Shown here piece after piece: positions 363-13,668 of a stretch of 64,000 bases of DNA. The stretch comes from a virus, in the IMG/VR virus record IMGVR_UViG_3300044908_000045, positions 1 through 64,000 of that record, one strand, 5' to 3'. Below the pieces are notes generated by a model. That model did no database searches, was not told the origin of the DNA, and saw nothing but the letters and a program-made list of their open reading frames with translations. The position numbers and the translations under genes were made by a program. The stretch's first letter is position 1, and every line of letters begins with the position of its first letter.

Positions 363-391
363 TTGACAGACCCTGTTGGGGTCGCCATCAT
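363..391 (+). promoter_or_regulatory. Putative sigma70 promoter driving the RNA island, with a palindrome in the spacer
   Basis: TTGACA (363-368), 17 nt, CATCAT (386-391); spacer contains GACCC-N5-GGGTC. Confidence 0.5.
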
Positions 392-397
392 CTCCAT

Positions 398-800
398 CGT
401 CATGCAGCGAATTGCCCGCACACAAGCCATAGAACGATCGGATCATCTCCGTTGGTTCGGCATGTGTGCGTACCCATCCTTGGGGAATCCGCAAGCATGA
501 GGTAGGGGTTGTTCGGCAGTTGCCGATAGGATCGCGAGATCATCAGCCCCCGCCAGTTCCCCCTGAGCGGGGGTTTTGTTCGAAGGTGAACGGCCAGCCT
601 TGATAGCAGTGGCCGTCGGGGAGACCGGTAAACTTCGTCGAAGGACGACAGCCCGTGACCTTCGTGGGGGCTGGGAATGGCCGGCTGAACCCACGCAGCG
701 ATCTACGGTGTATTTTGTTCCTTTTTCGCCTAACGTCGGCCCCGTGAAGGTTTCTAGGGCTGGAGGGCAGCGCAAGCGACGTTAGGCGAAAGCGGAATAC
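398..800 (+). ncRNA. Candidate large structured ncRNA (family unknown)
   Basis: No convincing ORF; nested hairpins with GNRA loops (GCGA, GAGA, GCAA); long stem TTTCGCCTAACGTCG/CGACGTTAGGCGAAA; boundaries approximate. Confidence 0.5.
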
Positions 801-802
801 CT

Positions 803-876
803 GGGGGCGTCGTTCAACGCGAGGATCTCTGGCCTGCAACCAGAAGATGAGAGTTGGACTCTCTCCGCCTCCACCA
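803..876 (+). tRNA. tRNA-Ala(UGC), C33, atypical T-loop
   Basis: Cloverleaf; G3:U70 and A73 Ala identity elements; anticodon loop CCTGCAA; encoded CCA. Confidence 0.85.
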
Positions 877-1031
877 ATACGGGACCACTGGTTTAATTCG
901 CGCCGTTAAGAGCGTGACCCGTAACGCTGTTAGCGACAAGACGGTGAGTGTCGCGGGTTCCATTCCCGAACAACCCCGTCAGCCGACGGATGGTCGTGGA
1001 AACCTGTGGAGCACCATCGTGGTCGGCACCC

Positions 1032-1113
1032 TCTGCGCGGGATTGACCGGCGTAGCCCCCTTAGCGAGTATGGGCCTCGCTAAGGTCGTCCCGGCCGGTC
1101 AATCCCGCGCAGA
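1032..1113 (+). repeat. Long inverted repeat / stem-loop
   Basis: TCTGCGCGGGATTGACCGGC (1032-1051) is perfectly complementary to 1094-1113 and encloses a second stem CCTTAGCGAG/CTCGCTAAGG. Confidence 0.8.
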
Positions 1114-1134
1114 ACCCGTAACCCGGAGGATGAG

Positions 1135-1341
1135 ATGGCATCTGACGCCAAATCCGGTGATAAATGCCAAACCTGTGGTGGTTCTGGATGGAACCCCGCG
1201 ATTCGGGAGAAGCCGACTCACATAGAGGCATTAATCGACGGCGACCGCCGCGCCCTCGAAACTCTGCACGATTATCTGAAGCGGCGGTTGTGCTGCCCCG
1301 ATTGCGGCGGCAAAGGAGTCAGAGATGGCAGAACCTGTTGA
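1135..1341 (+). CDS. Small protein with CxxCxGxG zinc-finger motifs
   Basis: CQTCGGSG and CPDCGGKG; GGAGG RBS upstream. Confidence 0.6.
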   Translation: MASDAKSGDKCQTCGGSGWNPAIREKPTHIEALIDGDRRALETLHDYLKRRLCCPDCGGKGVRDGRTC

Positions 1342-1549
1342 GGTCAAGTGGACCGTCCTCATGACCCTGAGTATCTCGACCAGCGAAGGTGGGTTAATAG
1401 CAGTTACGGCTGACGAACCGAAAGGATTGCTTGTAACGGGGCATTCGCTCGCCGAAGTCTTGGAGCGGGTTCCTGGGGCGATTTATGAGTTGATGTCGGC
1501 GGGAGCCAAAGCACCAAGGCTTGAGCGTTTCACGCCAGCGGGCGTATAG
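1325..1549 (+). CDS. HicB-like/DUF1902-like small protein
   Basis: EGGLIAVTADEPKGLLVTGHSLAEVLERVPGAI resembles the HicB N-terminal fold. Confidence 0.55.
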   Translation: MAEPVEVKWTVLMTLSISTSEGGLIAVTADEPKGLLVTGHSLAEVLERVPGAIYELMSAGAKAPRLERFTPAGV

Positions 1550-1615
1550 CTCAACGGCCAAGAGCAGGCGCTTTATAAGCGTCAGACTTCGGTTCGACCC
1601 CGAATACGCCTACCA
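1540..1615 (+). tRNA. tRNA-Ile(UAU)
   Basis: Canonical cloverleaf, loop TTTATAA, TTCGA T-loop, ACCA end. Confidence 0.85.
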
Positions 1616-1626
1616 AGAAATACTGA

Positions 1627-1702
1627 AGCGGGAGGCAAGGGCCAGTGCCCTGGTCCGGCTCATAACCGGACAACCCGGAGGCAGCATCCGGTCCCGCCAC
1701 CA
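1627..1702 (+). tRNA. tRNA-Met(CAU), initiator-like 1:72 mismatch, atypical T-loop
   Basis: Anticodon arm TCCGG-CTCATAA-CCGGA; A1:C72 mismatch; ACCA. Confidence 0.7.
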
Positions 1703-1838
1703 ACCCACTGGGATCGCCGACCCCCAACGGCGAGGCTTTCGTGACGCGCCGGGGCAACGTCCACCTGTCCTCCCCCTGCCACCCCGGTTCCCAGTGGCCC
1801 TACCCACGTTGGCGTCAATCTTGTCGTCAACGTTTCCT

Positions 1839-11617: not shown

Positions 11618-11618
11618 C

Positions 11619-11690
11619 GCGCTCGCCAGCGGATCTGGCGCTTCGGCTCCGAACCGGAGATGCGGGGTTCAACTCCCTGCGGGCGCGCCA
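11619..11690 (+). tRNA. tRNA-Arg(CCG), second copy with reduced D-arm
   Basis: Loop CTCCGAA; GCGCTCG/CGGGCGC; GCCA. Confidence 0.7.
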
Positions 11691-11765
11691 GCGCGGTTGA
11701 TGCAAGAGCAGACATCTCCGATTCAAACTCGGAGTCGCCCGGTGCGATGCCGGGACCGCGCACCA
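11691..11765 (+). tRNA. tRNA-Leu(CAA) with short variable loop
   Basis: Arm TCCGA-TTCAAAC-TCGGA; ACCA. Confidence 0.7.
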
Positions 11766-11769
11766 GTTT

Positions 11770-11845
11770 GCTGGCGTAGCTCAGATGGCAGAGCGCCGAT
11801 CTCGTAAGTCGGGGGTCATCCGTTCAATTCGGATCGTCAGCACCA
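11770..11845 (+). tRNA. tRNA-Thr(CGU)
   Basis: Loop CTCGTAA; canonical D-arm; ACCA. Confidence 0.9.
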
Positions 11846-11857
11846 CCAACTTTTCTC

Positions 11858-11886
11858 TTGACGCCTTCGGGATCGCCGCTTATCCT
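11858..11886 (+). promoter_or_regulatory. Putative sigma70 promoter
   Basis: TTGACG-17-TATCCT. Confidence 0.6.
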
Positions 11887-11946
11887 GCGCGTCAGGTGGC
11901 CCAACTCCCGGCGTGGCGCACCGCTCCAATGTGATGGGGACGTTAA

Positions 11947-12681
11947 ATGGCAAAGCTCAACCAGATTATCGCGGTGGAGAAGGGCATCAAGTCGCGGGTC
12001 TACGGCGAGATTACCGAACTCCACAAGGTCAACCAGAAGCCGGCGCTCTTCAGCGGATTCGCCAAGGACTACCATCCGATTGACGATGCTGGCGAGGCGC
12101 TTCCTCCCGAGCGGCAGCGGGTGCAGTACCGCGCCAATGAGATCCTCCAAAAGCTGGCGGTACTCAGTACCGAGTTGATGGATGTCACCGCGCGCAAGGA
12201 CTGGACGAACTGTCAGGCCACGGCCGATGTCTCGGTTGACGGCAACGTACTGATCCCGGCCGTGCCAGTGACGTATTTGCTCTTCTTGGAAAAACAACTG
12301 ACCGACCTGCGCACGTTCGTAGCGGAGTTGCCCCTGCTCGACGAGGCGGACGATTGGTCGCTGGACGACAACTCGGGTCTTCAACGCACCCCAGAGATCA
12401 AGACGCACCGGACGAAGAAGCTTCAGCGGCCGGTCGTGCTCTACGACGCGACGCCGGAGCACCCGGCGCAGACGCAGTTGATCACCGAGGACGTGCTCGC
12501 TGGCTATTGGCACCAGACGAAGCTCTCTGGGGCTATGCCGCGCCCGAAGCAGCGGGCGCTGGCCGAGCGCGTCGAGAGGCTGCTCCAGGCCGTCAAGCAG
12601 GCCCGCGAGGCCGCGAATTCGGTGGACGAGACCGCGACGCCCGAAATCGGCGCGAGGGTCTTCGACTACCTGTACGAATAA
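11947..12681 (+). CDS. Conserved coiled-coil protein (MAKLNQIIAVEKG family, uncharacterised)
   Basis: Strongly biased, high-GC3 codon usage; motifs LNQIIAVEKG, KDWTN, YLLFLEKQL, ATPEHPAQ, VKQAREAAN. Confidence 0.85.
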   Translation: MAKLNQIIAVEKGIKSRVYGEITELHKVNQKPALFSGFAKDYHPIDDAGEALPPERQRVQYRANEILQKLAVLSTELMDVTARKDWTNCQATADVSVDGNVLIPAVPVTYLLFLEKQLTDLRTFVAELPLLDEADDWSLDDNSGLQRTPEIKTHRTKKLQRPVVLYDATPEHPAQTQLITEDVLAGYWHQTKLSGAMPRPKQRALAERVERLLQAVKQAREAANSVDETATPEIGARVFDYLYE

Positions 12682-13037
12682 ACTCAGACTGAGGGTCAAA
12701 TTCAGGAGCGGACGTGAAGGTTCGAGCCCTTCCCCCCGGACCACCAGACCACCGACCGGGGGTGGCGAAATTGGCAGACGCGGTCGTAAGGCTGTCCGCA
12801 GATAAACCTGAGATTATGTCCCCCAAACTGAGTATTGCCGCGCTGGCCCAATCGATCGGGGCGGCACCCAACACCGACAACGCTGGTTCGAATCCAGCCC
12901 TGGCCGCCAATTCACTCTGGCCGGGTAGTTTAGCGGAAGAACGGTCGGCTCTCAGACTCGGGTTGCCCCTTAAACGCCATGGACCGGGCGAAATCGCGGC
13001 ACCGGCCCCGGTGATGTAGGCTACACTCACCGGGGCC
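12680..13037 (+). ncRNA. Structured RNA with two circularly permuted tRNA domains
   Basis: Order T-arm, acceptor 3' strand + NCCA, linker, acceptor 5' strand, D-arm at 12716-12781 and 12882-12942. Confidence 0.8.
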
Positions 13038-13045
13038 ATTTCTCT
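13004..13045 (+). terminator. Terminator-like hairpin
   Basis: GGCCCCGGTGA/TCACCGGGGCC followed by ATTTCTCT. Confidence 0.5.
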
Positions 13046-13059
13046 CAACGGAGCACCAG

Positions 13060-13668
13060 ATGTCTCGCGCAGCGATGAAGGAGCGAAGTAGATCGCTGCA
13101 ATATAACACGCTGATCCTAAACGCCGACTTCTGGCCGCTCAGCACGTATCCGGTGTCTATCAAGCCTGCGCGCAAGGCAATCGAGAACTATATCAAGCGC
13201 AAGGTTGATATAGTTGACGATTGGGGCGTAATGGTACGCTCATCGACGCTGACTGTGCCGGTTCCAAAAGTTGTCGTGCTTAGGCAATTTGCCCCCATCT
13301 ACGGCGAGCCGAAGTTCTGTCGCCGCTCAATACTTGTGCGCGATAAGTTCCGGTGTCAGTATTGTGGGCAGGAGTTCCCATCGCAAGAACTCACCTACGA
13401 TCACGTCATTCCGCGCTCGCTGGGCGGTAAGACGACTTGGACGAACATCGTCACTGCTTGCTTGCGGTGCAACGCTGCAAAGGCGAATAGTCTGCCGCAT
13501 TATAGCGGACGCAAGGGTGTCGTCCGGCCCGGTAAGATGCGCCCACTCAAGGAACCTCGGCGTCCGACTAATGCGGAGCTACTGCGTGCGGGGCTGCAAT
13601 TCCTGCCGAATGATGTCAGGGATGACTTCGGGTCGTATCTGTATTGGCACACTGAATTGCGGGCGTGA
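13060..13668 (+). CDS. HNH endonuclease (type commonly linked to tRNA arrays)
   Basis: LILNADFWPLS, RDKFRCQYCG, TYDHVIPRSLGG, WTNIVTACLRCNAAK. Confidence 0.92.
   Translation: MSRAAMKERSRSLQYNTLILNADFWPLSTYPVSIKPARKAIENYIKRKVDIVDDWGVMVRSSTLTVPVPKVVVLRQFAPIYGEPKFCRRSILVRDKFRCQYCGQEFPSQELTYDHVIPRSLGGKTTWTNIVTACLRCNAAKANSLPHYSGRKGVVRPGKMRPLKEPRRPTNAELLRAGLQFLPNDVRDDFGSYLYWHTELRA

Follow-up and report, generated by a model that had tools for sequence, protein, structure and literature searches.

An RNA family copying the GTPase-associated centre of 23S rRNA in phage tRNA arrays

The phage locus described here brings together tRNA genes, other structured RNAs and RNA-related proteins, all on one strand (+) and within 13 kb, which raises the question of whether its parts act as one translation-protection system, as an earlier note on this DNA had proposed, or represent separate modules. 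The analysed window comprises the first 64 kb of a 122,238-bp IMG/VR virus record, a linear phage contig that is 93% complete, and 'integrated', the term previously applied to the island, therefore cannot denote a prophage. The co-oriented RNA- or translation-related parts that had been listed do exist, and the observation was largely real although its counts were too high. Here we describe how the region is built, define an RNA family by its structure and its setting in tRNA arrays, and show that this RNA is present in RNA libraries. Comparisons were made with the two nearest relatives of the record, L001 and L002 (Ro60 98% identical). All genes and named RNAs below lie on the + strand.

The tRNA array and its intervening sequences

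ARAGORN at default settings identified 23 tRNAs, all on the + strand, between positions 1540 and 11845, while the relaxed setting (-ps90) yielded five more, giving 28 tRNAs for 18 amino acids. The array was thereby confirmed, though not at the 30 tRNAs first counted, nor as a 'complete tRNA set' for all 20 amino acids, since tRNA-Met and tRNA-His were not found in the array even at -ps80; tRNA-Met is present in L001 and L002, and tRNA-His in L001. The tRNA-Ala(tgc) gene at 803–876 was detected by ARAGORN only at -ps90 (45.4 bits, Rfam tRNA model), and the default setting retrieved tRNAs Ile(tat) (1540–1615), Phe (1839–1913), Gly (1914–1988), Asn (2089–2166), Trp (2238–2311), Cys (2989–3064), Thr(tgt) (3269–3344), Gln(ctg) (3962–4036) and Gln(ttg) (4502–4573). 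ARAGORN also placed tRNA-Glu(ctc) at 4846–4923, and the stretch 5251–5683 holds tRNAs Leu(taa), Leu(tag), Ser(gct) and Thr(ggt) together with a type-II tRNA at 5422–5513 (-ps90; 44.8 bits, Rfam tRNA-Sec model), which on visual inspection resembles a Ser(UGA) tRNA and has C33. Within 5896–6298 lie tRNAs Tyr(gta) (5896–5981; -ps90, 26.5 bits in Rfam), Asp(gtc) (6141–6216; -ps90), Ile(gat), Lys(ctt) and Pro(tgg). Further ARAGORN predictions are tRNA-Val (7527–7602), tRNA-Glu(ttc) (8696–8771), tRNA-Arg(ccg) and tRNA-Arg(tct) (both default, within 10994–11150), and a weak second Arg(ccg)-like tRNA (11617–11689; -ps90), followed up to 11845 by tRNAs Leu(caa) and Thr(cgt). CCA is encoded at the 3' end of those tRNAs whose sequence was inspected. 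As in the tRNA arrays of large phages, many co-oriented tRNA genes are interspersed with small ORFs; the present array differs from published ones in covering 18 of the 20 amino acids and in adding several non-tRNA RNAs.

The intervening ORFs are largely without an assigned function. Cys-rich (68 aa, 1135–1341) and 74-aa (1325–1549) products gave sub-threshold Pfam rows only, the former being kept in L001 and L002, as is a 92-aa ORF of no assigned family (2702–2980); a Cys/His-rich ORF of 118 aa (4145–4501) had no family match. The DUF4326 ORF at 4589–4969 (PF14216, 2.1e-26, residues 7–83) has a reading frame that continues through tRNA-Glu(ctc), and is followed by a 101-aa ORF (4966–5271) that is 97% identical in L001, a DUF6980 zinc-ribbon ORF (5703–5951; PF22400, 5.2e-17) and a 223-aa ORF (6361–7032) with no Pfam or PHROG match, shared with L001 and L002 at 87% identity. 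The block 7279–9100, consisting of ORF85 (7279–7536), ORF119 (7637–7996), ORF232 (8019–8717) and ORF103 (8789–9100) with tRNA-Val and tRNA-Glu(ttc), is kept in relatives; the predicted structure of ORF232 (pLDDT 84) gave no convincing fold match. ORF67 (11170–11373) and ORF87 (11354–11617; phrog_21607) lie towards the end of the array. At least five other structured RNAs had been claimed for this region. Several of the gaps proved to be small ORFs, and what stands of the claim are thermodynamic hints, namely the strongly folding non-coding stretch 877–1134 (+; MFE z = -6.1), which has no Rfam match and is shared with L001 and L002 at 96% identity, and the stretches 363–802 (z = -4.3), 7033–7278 (non-coding, z = -3.4, on the + strand only) and 10817–10993 (z = -2.4).

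A phage RNA family resembling the GTPase-associated centre

The rRNA mimic reported previously was confirmed as a 371-nt RNA at 2313–2683, which belongs to a widespread, expressed family of phage RNAs, not described before, that copies the 23S GTPase-associated centre (GAC; H42–H44, the uL11 site). The window copy has a closing stem (2314–2323 with 2673–2681), H43 and H44 look-alikes (2325–2356 and 2659–2671, respectively) and a sarcin-ricin loop (SRL) hairpin (2563–2588), and 41 of 58 positions are identical to E. coli 23S 1051–1108. Its family-model score is only 39.8 bits (E 5.8e-9), over the 5' part only, as alignment to the model is interrupted by the long insert, and MFE folding was no better than that of shuffled sequence (z about 0). 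Exposed loop bases differ from rRNA (A1069G, and GGC at 1095–1097), which counts against a strict substrate decoy, since such a decoy might be expected to retain them. Neither L001 nor L002 carries the mimic; a relative's DNA contig runs straight from 2312 to 2686, leaving out exactly 2313–2685.

A sequence-pattern scan of viral contigs retrieved at least 119 family loci. Among the 119 loci listed, alignments to E. coli 23S rRNA never exceed 43 nt, the rRNA-like part spanning 30–43 nt and being confined, where alignable, to E. coli ~1046–1100. Furthermore, tRNAs occur in 96 of these 119 loci, within 500 nt in 76, and lie on the same strand as the mimic in 792 cases versus four on the opposite strand. 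In 37 short members, paired cells amount to 90.7% as against 61.8% after shuffling, and the covariation score is 0.729 as against 0.186, with none of 500 shuffles scoring as high; the 1072/(1092-1099) tertiary triple is CCG in 28 members and UUA in nine, with zero exceptions, and U1060 and U1078 are invariant. The family consensus is identical to E. coli 1051–1108 at 45 of 58 positions and 30 of 33 near-invariant columns equal E. coli, though 16 of the 58 core positions are dictated by the retrieval pattern, so that conservation there is partly ascertainment. The true E. coli centre scores 46.8 bits on the family model, and the cultured phages pf16 and GAP32 score 102 and 86.6 bits, respectively; the site is unannotated in both and lies between two tRNAs in pf16. 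Sixteen members, the window copy included, have an SRL hairpin whose stem covaries, the GAGA loop reading GGGA in four of them, while most members lack an SRL (15 of the 119 scanned loci listed carry one). The window subfamily combines a GAC copy with an SRL hairpin, which in the window copy is placed within an inserted domain.

The mimic shares with the ribosomal centre (1051–1108) its helices, the U1060.U1078 pair and the covarying triple, and with the sarcin-ricin loop the 12-mer AGUACGAGAGGA within a stem-closed hairpin. It differs in being a free-standing RNA of about 120–400 nt with its own 5'/3' closing stem, in the variable domain inserted between 1089 and 1090, in the A at position 1101, and in being encoded in phage tRNA arrays without other rRNA sequence around it. 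Leader RNAs of ribosomal protein operons likewise imitate, outside the ribosome, a site at which rRNA binds protein (PMC7247131); these are cis-acting 5' UTRs, whereas the mimic lies among tRNAs in phages. GOLLD and ROOL are also large structured RNAs with no assigned function and a preference for phage tRNA neighbourhoods (PMC5737381), and the mimic differs from them in its recognisably ribosomal fold; Rfam matches to either were absent from both the window and the tested mimic loci.

In three soil metatranscriptome studies there are RNA contigs confined to the mimic, at depths of 18, 7.8 and 69, while the ORF next to it has depths of 0, 2 and 0 in the same libraries. The mimic is present in these libraries as a discrete 371-nt species, as judged from contigs to which DNA carry-over may have contributed. 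Additionally, one metatranscriptome RNA contig is a 371-nt circular path, i.e. a head-to-tail joined mimic, a joint that could be a template-switch artefact or reflect tandem DNA copies in another phage.

Phosphatase, Ro60 and DUF7873 modules

The expected Pnk-type phosphatase was found at 3364–3798 as a stand-alone Pnkp-type HAD 3'-phosphatase domain of 144 aa (PF25109, 5.9e-34; phrog_415, 1.5e-43). Its ORF holds no kinase domain, and the 122-kb genome yielded no AAA_33 match and no RtcB, Rnl2-type or ATP DNA ligase, the PF09511 control being uninformative. The earlier remark that no RNA ligase was recognised thus holds beyond the window, for the families tested across the 122-kb record, and the proposed 'RNA-healing enzymes' amount to a lone phosphatase domain without a kinase or ligase of those families. 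The T4 Pnk/Rnl1 system repairs tRNA, and the locus resembles it in carrying a Pnkp-type phosphatase domain beside tRNA genes; it differs in that the phosphatase lacks a kinase domain and a ligase was not detected among the families tested. The HNH endonuclease gene assigned to the island is present at 13060–13668 (PF14279, 1.7e-18), but nothing links it to RNA and its position is the border with the virion genes.

Ro60 and its two Y-like RNAs were found as claimed. The Ro60 orthologue (TROVE plus vWA; 9413–10816; TROVE 1.1e-9, phrog_850 2.4e-48) is directly preceded by two tandem Y-like modules at 9141–9230 and 9243–9385 (three in L001 and L002), the second with a tRNA-like core at 9263–9326 (52.4 bits over Rfam tRNA model positions 5–66). 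A promoter-like TTGACA-N17-TATATT element, read from the sequence at 9099–9126 (+), precedes them and is kept in L001 and L002. Chen et al. 2014 described Ro60 with tRNA-like Y RNAs encoded on the same strand, no more than 4 kb away, in 254 bacteria and 22 phages (PMC4201824), and the module resembles such Ro60/YrlA/YrlB systems in its TROVE plus vWA protein and nearby same-strand tRNA-like Y RNAs. It differs in that the Ro60-adjacent RNA has a standard-order rather than permuted tRNA-like core, the permuted YrlA-like RNAs here going with DUF7873 and elsewhere occurring in phages without Ro60.

The permuted-tRNA RNA was confirmed as a pair of tandem YrlA-like RNAs within 12682–13003, one at 12682–12835 and the other at about 12836–13003 (core 12852–12976), downstream of a DUF7873 gene (11947–12681; PF25283, 4.5e-94). 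The Rfam YrlA model gave 23 bits (E 0.013), short of its gathering score of 69, and the purpose-built model R2 gave 73.6 bits (E 1.6e-14) with the window outside its training set. DUF7873 has 5284 homologues, and its predicted model (pLDDT 89) had no fold match in the PDB at E<=0.001. The YrlA-like RNA is linked to DUF7873 in 79 of 80 loci, mostly phages without Ro60, and only one of 18 DUF7873 phage records encodes Ro60. DUF7873 and its YrlA-like RNAs are absent from L002.

Possible function of the locus

A single translation-protection island of co-adapted parts, with replacement tRNAs, decoys, Ro60 triage and RNA-healing enzymes acting as a system, would fit the co-orientation of RNA-related parts within 13 kb and the phosphatase-through-Ro60 core, which is kept in L001 and L002 at 83–100% protein identity. 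We regard it as unlikely, however, given that the mimic is missing from both relatives and DUF7873 with its RNAs from L002, that Ro60 is rare among DUF7873 phages, that no kinase or ligase of the tested families is encoded, and that Met and His tRNAs are missing. The neighbourhood comparison, furthermore, found the modules to separate: among the 119 mimic loci listed, a Ro60 relative occurs in none and the phosphatase in two. Because the modules fail to co-occur, the data give no support to one protection system inherited as a unit. It is possible, if doubtful, that the array is ordinary codon-usage compensation, with the non-tRNA RNAs as passengers of mutually unrelated functions at a well-expressed, well-processed landing site. 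The tRNAs could be explained by codon supplementation alone, content is mosaic, modules turn over among close relatives, and other large RNAs lie beside such arrays (e.g. tmRNA in L027, and a GOLLD-like match and tmRNA in the DUF7873 loci L282 and L315); yet this leaves the precise mimicry of translation components unexplained, and published reports of phage tRNAs counteracting defences that cleave tRNA, and so rescuing infection, indicate that arrays go beyond codon usage (PMC10264068, PMC11464382, PMC11555353).

With respect to the mimic itself, oligonucleotides of the GAC or the SRL alone suffice to bind EF-G in vitro, and RelA activation requires uL11, both in keeping with its being, rather than a toxin decoy, a sponge for uL11, EF-G, other GTPases or RelA that retunes translation or blunts the stringent response in infection. 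The entire uL11-binding fold is kept beyond the target hairpin, base triple and U.U pair included, and one subfamily joins the two rRNA elements that touch elongation-factor GTPases (GAC plus SRL; PMC8661411). We entertain this reading only tentatively, as titrating elongation factors would slow phage protein synthesis too, the SRL is confined to a minority of loci, and no phage-encoded uL11 or bL12 lies beside the mimic, neither gene being found in this genome. That the mimic is functionless, either a remnant of captured host 23S rDNA undergoing decay or a selfish insertion, appears highly improbable: it behaves as a clean presence/absence module, as the relative's contig illustrates, but four helices and the tertiary triple show compensatory changes across GC-poor and GC-rich phages alike, the element has gained a new domain by insertion and a stem that closes it, the rRNA likeness is limited to 30–43 nt, and its RNA-library depth is above that of its neighbours.

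On balance, we lean towards reading the region as the end at which an uncultivated soil phage carries the tRNA array of its ~122-kb genome, and as a mosaic of RNA-centred modules that move independently of one another. It would operate as follows. The array would be transcribed as long precursors, from which host tRNA-processing enzymes would probably excise the tRNAs, thereby setting neighbouring RNAs free as discrete species. The phage tRNAs would supplement or replace those of the host, and other RNAs of the window may serve as decoys. Toxins exist against the rRNA sites that the mimic copies: PMC8661411 describes Tre23, which ADP-ribosylates H44 at 1095–1098, and VapC-mt20/26, which cut 23S rRNA. 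Folding like the ribosomal factor-docking site, the mimic would compete with ribosomes for whatever docks there, most likely a translation-directed toxin from host defence or competitors, against which it may protect, or alternatively uL11 or a translational GTPase.

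Layout of the region and its tRNA array

The source of the window is a single contig of 122,238 bp, classed as a linear virus record with 93% completeness, and the G+C content is approximately 59%. Because the record is linear and genes for virion structural proteins lie to the right of the tRNAs, the region represents the tRNA-bearing left end of a phage genome rather than a bacterial integration, and the term 'integrated', applied in an earlier note to a proposed translation-protection island (363..13668), was not borne out. Sequencing runs containing the window sequence were mostly soil metagenomes, and a megablast search with the entire region found no match among cultured phages. 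Most components of the proposed island are of known kinds, namely the tRNA array, the phosphatase, and Ro60 together with its Y RNAs.

At its default threshold ARAGORN identified 23 tRNAs, a number that rose to 28 under relaxed settings; all lie on the + strand and fit within 11 kb. The array thus resembles other phage tRNA arrays in its many clustered, co-oriented genes. The tRNAs added by the relaxed search were Ala, a long-arm Ser(UGA)-like tRNA (assigned by eye), Tyr, Asp and a second Arg, three of which were supported by Rfam. The co-oriented array described previously was therefore recovered, but the reported 30 tRNAs and complete amino-acid coverage were not: the 28 tRNAs serve 18 of the 20 amino acids, and neither Met nor His tRNAs were detected in the window (ARAGORN -ps80 and Rfam at E<=1). 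Both are present among close relatives, and a comparison of the arrays indicates that near-identical phages swap tRNA cassettes. The window carries tRNA-Ile(UAU) at 1540-1615 where its nearest relatives, L001 and L002, carry tRNA-Met(CAT) (1221-1295 and 413-487, respectively), and at the position of Thr(tgt) in the window and L002, L001 carries tRNA-His. Additionally, ARAGORN labelled the type-II tRNA at 5422-5513 as 'Phe(aaa)'; by eye its anticodon is UGA (Ser), in an unusual loop with C at position 33. The L002 array includes, according to ARAGORN, a tRNA with anticodon CTA at 11803-11876 (an amber suppressor, labelled 'Pyl'). The motif GTTTYGTGCGGGT occurs twice, directly 3' of tRNA-Gly (1989-2001) and of tRNA-Cys (3065-3077), and may be a processing or termination signal; a similar motif, GTCTTCGTGCGC, follows tRNA-Asn at 2167.

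Four proteins were identified with Pfam and PHROGs: a Pnkp-type HAD phosphatase, a TROVE/vWA Ro60, DUF7873 and an HNH nuclease. The phosphatase (3364-3798, + strand; 144 aa; PF25109, 5.9e-34) and the HNH endonuclease (13060-13668, + strand; PF14279, 1.7e-18; PF01844, 1.3e-15) agree with what had been recognised from the sequence. Small ORFs, among them a DUF4326 gene and a DUF6980 zinc ribbon, fill several of the presumed gaps. The DUF4326 frame (4589-4969) has no stop before it crosses tRNA-Glu(ctc) at 4846-4923, so that processing of this tRNA would leave a non-stop mRNA. The non-coding stretch 877-1134 folds very stably (z = -6.1), is 96% conserved in both nearest relatives and matches no Rfam family. 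Outside the tRNA region, an ORF at 41212-42501 displays GIY-YIG-type homing-endonuclease matches and a C-terminal HNH-like piece, and is flanked by large genes without assigned function (37634-41185 and 43104-45353).

The RNA-healing function suggested for the region stood with respect to the phosphatase only. The protein consists of the HAD domain, which it shares with the T4-type Pnk repair pathway, whereas neither the P-loop kinase domain nor the partner RNA ligase of that pathway was found in the record. Profiles for RtcB, PF09414 (Rnl2-type), PF01068 (ATP-dependent DNA ligase) and AAA_33 gave no match in the 122-kb, 93% complete record, extending the earlier failure to recognise an RNA ligase in the window; PF09511 (T4 Rnl1) was likewise without matches, the same model also giving none in control genomes. 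The earlier note had considered that one of the hypothetical proteins might seal RNA, and had listed ORF232 (the ORF at 8019) among several ORFs for structure prediction. Foldseek searches with models of ORF232 and DUF7873 returned no PDB match at E<=0.001, a wide fold search of ORF232 with VIA-align gave an unconvincing best Z of 5.5, and the ESM Atlas yielded same-family or unnamed clusters only. The predicted folds thus lend no support to either protein as a ligase or kinase, which does not constitute proof.

Ro60 itself was confirmed by PF05731 (TROVE, 1.1e-9, above the cut-off; VWA rows were sub-threshold) and by phrog_850 (2.4e-48), which covers residues 59-499 of the 502-aa frame at 9308-10816; its start at 9413 is preceded by AGGAG. 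Upstream lie a promoter-like TTGACA-N17-TATATT and two tandem stem modules, in agreement with the two Y-like RNAs previously noted, the second of which encloses a standard-order tRNA-like core. Relatives possess three such modules. Y RNAs adjoining Ro60 in bacteria and phages are described in PMC4201824, and the arrangement in the window matches that description.

An RNA resembling the GTPase-associated centre of 23S rRNA

Between tRNA-Trp and the next ORF, the Rfam bacterial LSU model aligned to 2325-2361 in the region of helices 43/44. BLAST against the E. coli rrn operon matched 2325-2356 (32 nt) to 23S positions 1057-1088 at 91% identity, and matched the universal sarcin-ricin loop (SRL) 12-mer, which occurs once in the window, at 2570, within a hairpin closed by a 5-bp stem, to positions 2654-2665. 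Window and E. coli are identical at 41 of the 58 positions of the GTPase-associated centre (GAC). These matches uphold the earlier recognition of an rRNA mimic, here delimited as a 371-nt RNA (2313-2683, + strand). Beyond the 32-nt segment and the 12-nt SRL core, no sequence resembling E. coli rRNA was found in the phage genome, and a genuine 23S rRNA gene or fragment was ruled out since there is no contiguous rRNA similarity beyond the GAC. A ribosomal-protein leader was similarly ruled out, given that the next gene is a 92-aa ORF of no known kind and that family members are flanked by tRNAs; the genome encodes neither uL11 nor bL12. Nor did the Rfam models of GOLLD and ROOL match 2300-2720 at E<=10, or the relatives L025-L027 at gathering score. 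Rfam yielded no family for the mimic or the other gaps, the window being covered at gathering score and in E-value mode, and 2300-2720, 9100-9500 and 12650-13070 additionally at E<=10. A possible H91-like match in the window occurs in this member alone and was thus treated as chance. Neither the mimic nor the Y RNAs stand out by MFE z-score.

Scanning viral contigs with a 14-mer SRL core returned mostly chance or coding matches; L028, L069 and L106 proved to be eukaryotic rRNA, and true relatives were restricted to L025, L026 and L027, unrelated large phage contigs in which the same layout is found inside tRNA arrays. A degenerate H43 pattern retrieved at least 119 loci from viral contigs, and none of the 119 listed is genuine rRNA, alignments to E. 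coli 23S reaching 43 nt at most. The members share a plan in which a 5' strand that pairs with the 3' end (the H42 analogue) is followed by the H43 hairpin, the 1082-1089 junction, a variable inserted domain and the H44 hairpin. On this plan, the mimic is the entire 58-nt uL11-binding domain plus an insertion. The H44-like 3' motif was present in 90 of the 119 listed loci, 86-404 nt past H43; 43 of these loci with both end motifs span 215 nt or less, and 41 are distinct. Following omission of near-duplicates (L163, L187, L210 and L212), 37 members were aligned, and 90.7% of cells in the four named helices were paired (61.8% when shuffled). Covariation reached 0.729 compared with 0.186 for shuffled alignments, was equalled in 0 of 500 shuffles and collapsed in slid controls. 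At the equivalents of C1072, C1092 and G1099, 28 members have CCG and nine have UUA, with zero exceptions, and the U1060/U1078 pair is invariant. The rRNA domain itself is known to contain the same triple, with the same CCG/UUA covariation. Of the 33 family columns that are near-invariant, 30 carry the E. coli base, noting that the search pattern fixed 16 of the 58 core positions and left the H44 half and the stems unfixed. In the alignment of short members, the exposed loop bases corresponding to 23S 1067-1069 and 1095-1097 vary and the rest of the core is fixed, positions 1067-1069 having been free to vary in the search pattern; on ribosomes these bases contact factors, thiopeptides and the Tre23 toxin.

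A covariance model trained on these members recognised the E. coli centre itself (46.8 bits) as well as Pseudomonas phage pf16 (102 bits) and Cronobacter phage GAP32 (86.6 bits). In pf16 the mimic occupies an unannotated gap between tRNA-Asn and tRNA-Pro, and in GAP32 an unannotated intergenic gap. Among bacterial-genome contigs picked by a mimic-specific 18-mer, 18 of 20 matched (78-131 bits); one such contig, L248, carries three consecutive matches (3988-5393). The window member scored 39.8 bits (E 5.8e-9), its long insert breaking the alignment. tRNAs were found in 96 of the 119 listed loci, within 500 nt in 76, and with few exceptions on the same strand as the mimic (792 same, 4 opposite). 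An SRL-like hairpin with a covarying flanking stem occurs approximately 230-290 nt past H43 in 15 of the 119 loci and in the window, and GAGA is replaced by GGGA in four of these 16 members. Arrays with DUF7873 or the mimic also contain tmRNA genes and a GOLLD-like RNA (107 bits, sub-gathering), as observed at L282 11-423, L315 1-376 and L027 1656-2061. No paper describing a phage rRNA mimic was found in the limited literature searched, and 'Sarcin-ricin-1/2' motifs were found neither by a search nor in the main text of a 224-motif paper (PMC5737381). The GAC/SRL mimic is therefore a conserved RNA module for which we could not find a description in Rfam or that literature.

Eight of the 24 runs containing parts of 2000-3400 are soil metatranscriptomes. 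Three of these, from three studies, yielded contigs limited to the mimic, with depths of 18 (2313-2683), 7.8 (2344-2679) and 69 (2227-2678), the next ORF having depths of 0, 2 and 0 in the same runs. The mimic is read as a discrete processed RNA on the basis of these contigs, which carry neither strand nor level and in which DNA carry-over is possible. Its ends sit at the base of the closing stem, 2 nt past the CCA of tRNA-Trp. In a relative, a DNA contig runs directly from 2312 to 2686 and so lacks exactly the mimic module (2313-2685). A 401-nt RNA-library contig forms a closed 371-nt path in which 2683 is joined to 2313. This joint points either to RNA circularity or to switching of reverse transcriptase from one template copy to another, with tandem copies in DNA as a further possibility; no head-to-tail DNA copies were present among the loci examined. 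The mimic may be a circular RNA, a clean mobile module, or both.

YrlA-like RNAs downstream of DUF7873

The permuted-tRNA RNA of the earlier note was substantiated as YrlA-like. In two RNAs 3' of DUF7873 (region 11947-13003), the T arm precedes a capped acceptor stem, which is followed by the D arm, the module order of YrlA-type permuted tRNA-like RNAs. The pair shares its strand with Ro60, which lies approximately 1.9 kb upstream. Rfam YrlA (RF02553) aligned to 12881-12942 over model positions 30-81 with 23 bits, below its gathering score of 69 bits. Among 80 fetched viral loci encoding DUF7873 (L261-L340), Rfam was run on 18, and nine displayed sub-threshold YrlA matches (27-38 bits), all just downstream and on the same strand. 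R2, a covariance model built from these nine loci, matched 70 of the remaining 71, the single miss being a locus that ends 196 nt past the gene, so that one or two YrlA-like RNAs lie 3' of DUF7873 in 79 of the 80 loci; one match was on the opposite strand. The window, which was outside the training set, scored 73.6 bits. In the model-fitted alignment (60 matches at E<=1e-6 from 57 sources) 98.1% of cells were paired and covariation was 0.878 compared with 0.230.

A Ro60 relative is encoded in only one of 18 DUF7873 phage records, and the sequence evidence suggests that DUF7873 is a Y-RNA partner independent of Ro60. The protein has 5284 homologues, is labelled hypothetical in cultured Gordonia, Arthrobacter, Rhizobium, Vibrio and other phages, and its predicted model is confident. 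Chen et al. (PMC4201824) restricted their survey to genomes containing TROVE, which places the DUF7873-YrlA link outside that survey. We could not find a description of this conserved RNA module.

A mosaic of modules and its possible roles

The nearest relatives, whose Ro60 is 98% identical, retain the phosphatase-to-Ro60 block, yet both lack the mimic and the DUF6980 gene, their tRNA sets differ, and DUF4326 is represented at most by a distant match in L001 (34% identity). L002 additionally lacks DUF7873 and its linked RNAs. Furthermore, the 119 listed mimic loci (1.09 Mb) contain no Ro60 or DUF7873, two phosphatases, one DUF4326 and two HNH nucleases. Since the modules co-occur neither in related genomes nor in mimic loci, the island as a co-occurring unit is largely refuted. 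Each module alone strongly favours tRNA arrays. Overall, the earlier observation was partly confirmed and its interpretation partly supported.

We instead read the region as a mosaic 'RNA cargo', in which the tRNAs would supplement or replace those of the host and the mimic would compete with the factor-binding site of the ribosome for a ligand. The nature of this ligand separates two closely matched readings. A role as a toxin decoy is our first choice, since toxins aimed at H44 and the SRL exist (PMC8661411) and phage tRNA arrays have been linked to counter-defence (PMC10264068, PMC11464382, PMC11555353). A close rival is that the mimic acts as a sponge for uL11, translational GTPases or RelA. 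Taking the decoy role together with DUF7873, we tentatively propose, as a combined reading that we consider rather unlikely, that the mimic RNA of large-phage tRNA arrays is an anti-defence decoy and that DUF7873 and the YrlA-like RNAs form a Ro60-independent Y-RNA system. The uL11-binding GAC is copied by all members, and the SRL is added in one subfamily. The mimic, possibly circular, would rebuild the factor-docking site of the ribosome in trans and soak up toxins attacking GAC/SRL sites, ribosomes thereby continuing to work during infection, and DUF7873 would bind YrlA-like tRNA mimics as a second RNP of the same arrays.

If true, this would represent the first rRNA-mimic counter-defence RNA, from a family spanning at least 119 viral contigs, 18 bacterial genome contigs and the cultured phages pf16 and GAP32. 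The DUF7873-YrlA link challenges the view of YrlA-like RNAs as partners of Ro60 only and offers DUF7873 a testable function; this and the mimic can both be addressed directly in laboratory phage-host pairs. Binding of the mimic as proposed would provide a natural GAC/SRL scaffold, compact and foldable, for structural studies and antibiotic research, and if its ligands are uL11, translational GTPases or rRNA-directed toxins, the mimic would make the ribosome itself a new front in the conflict between phage and host.
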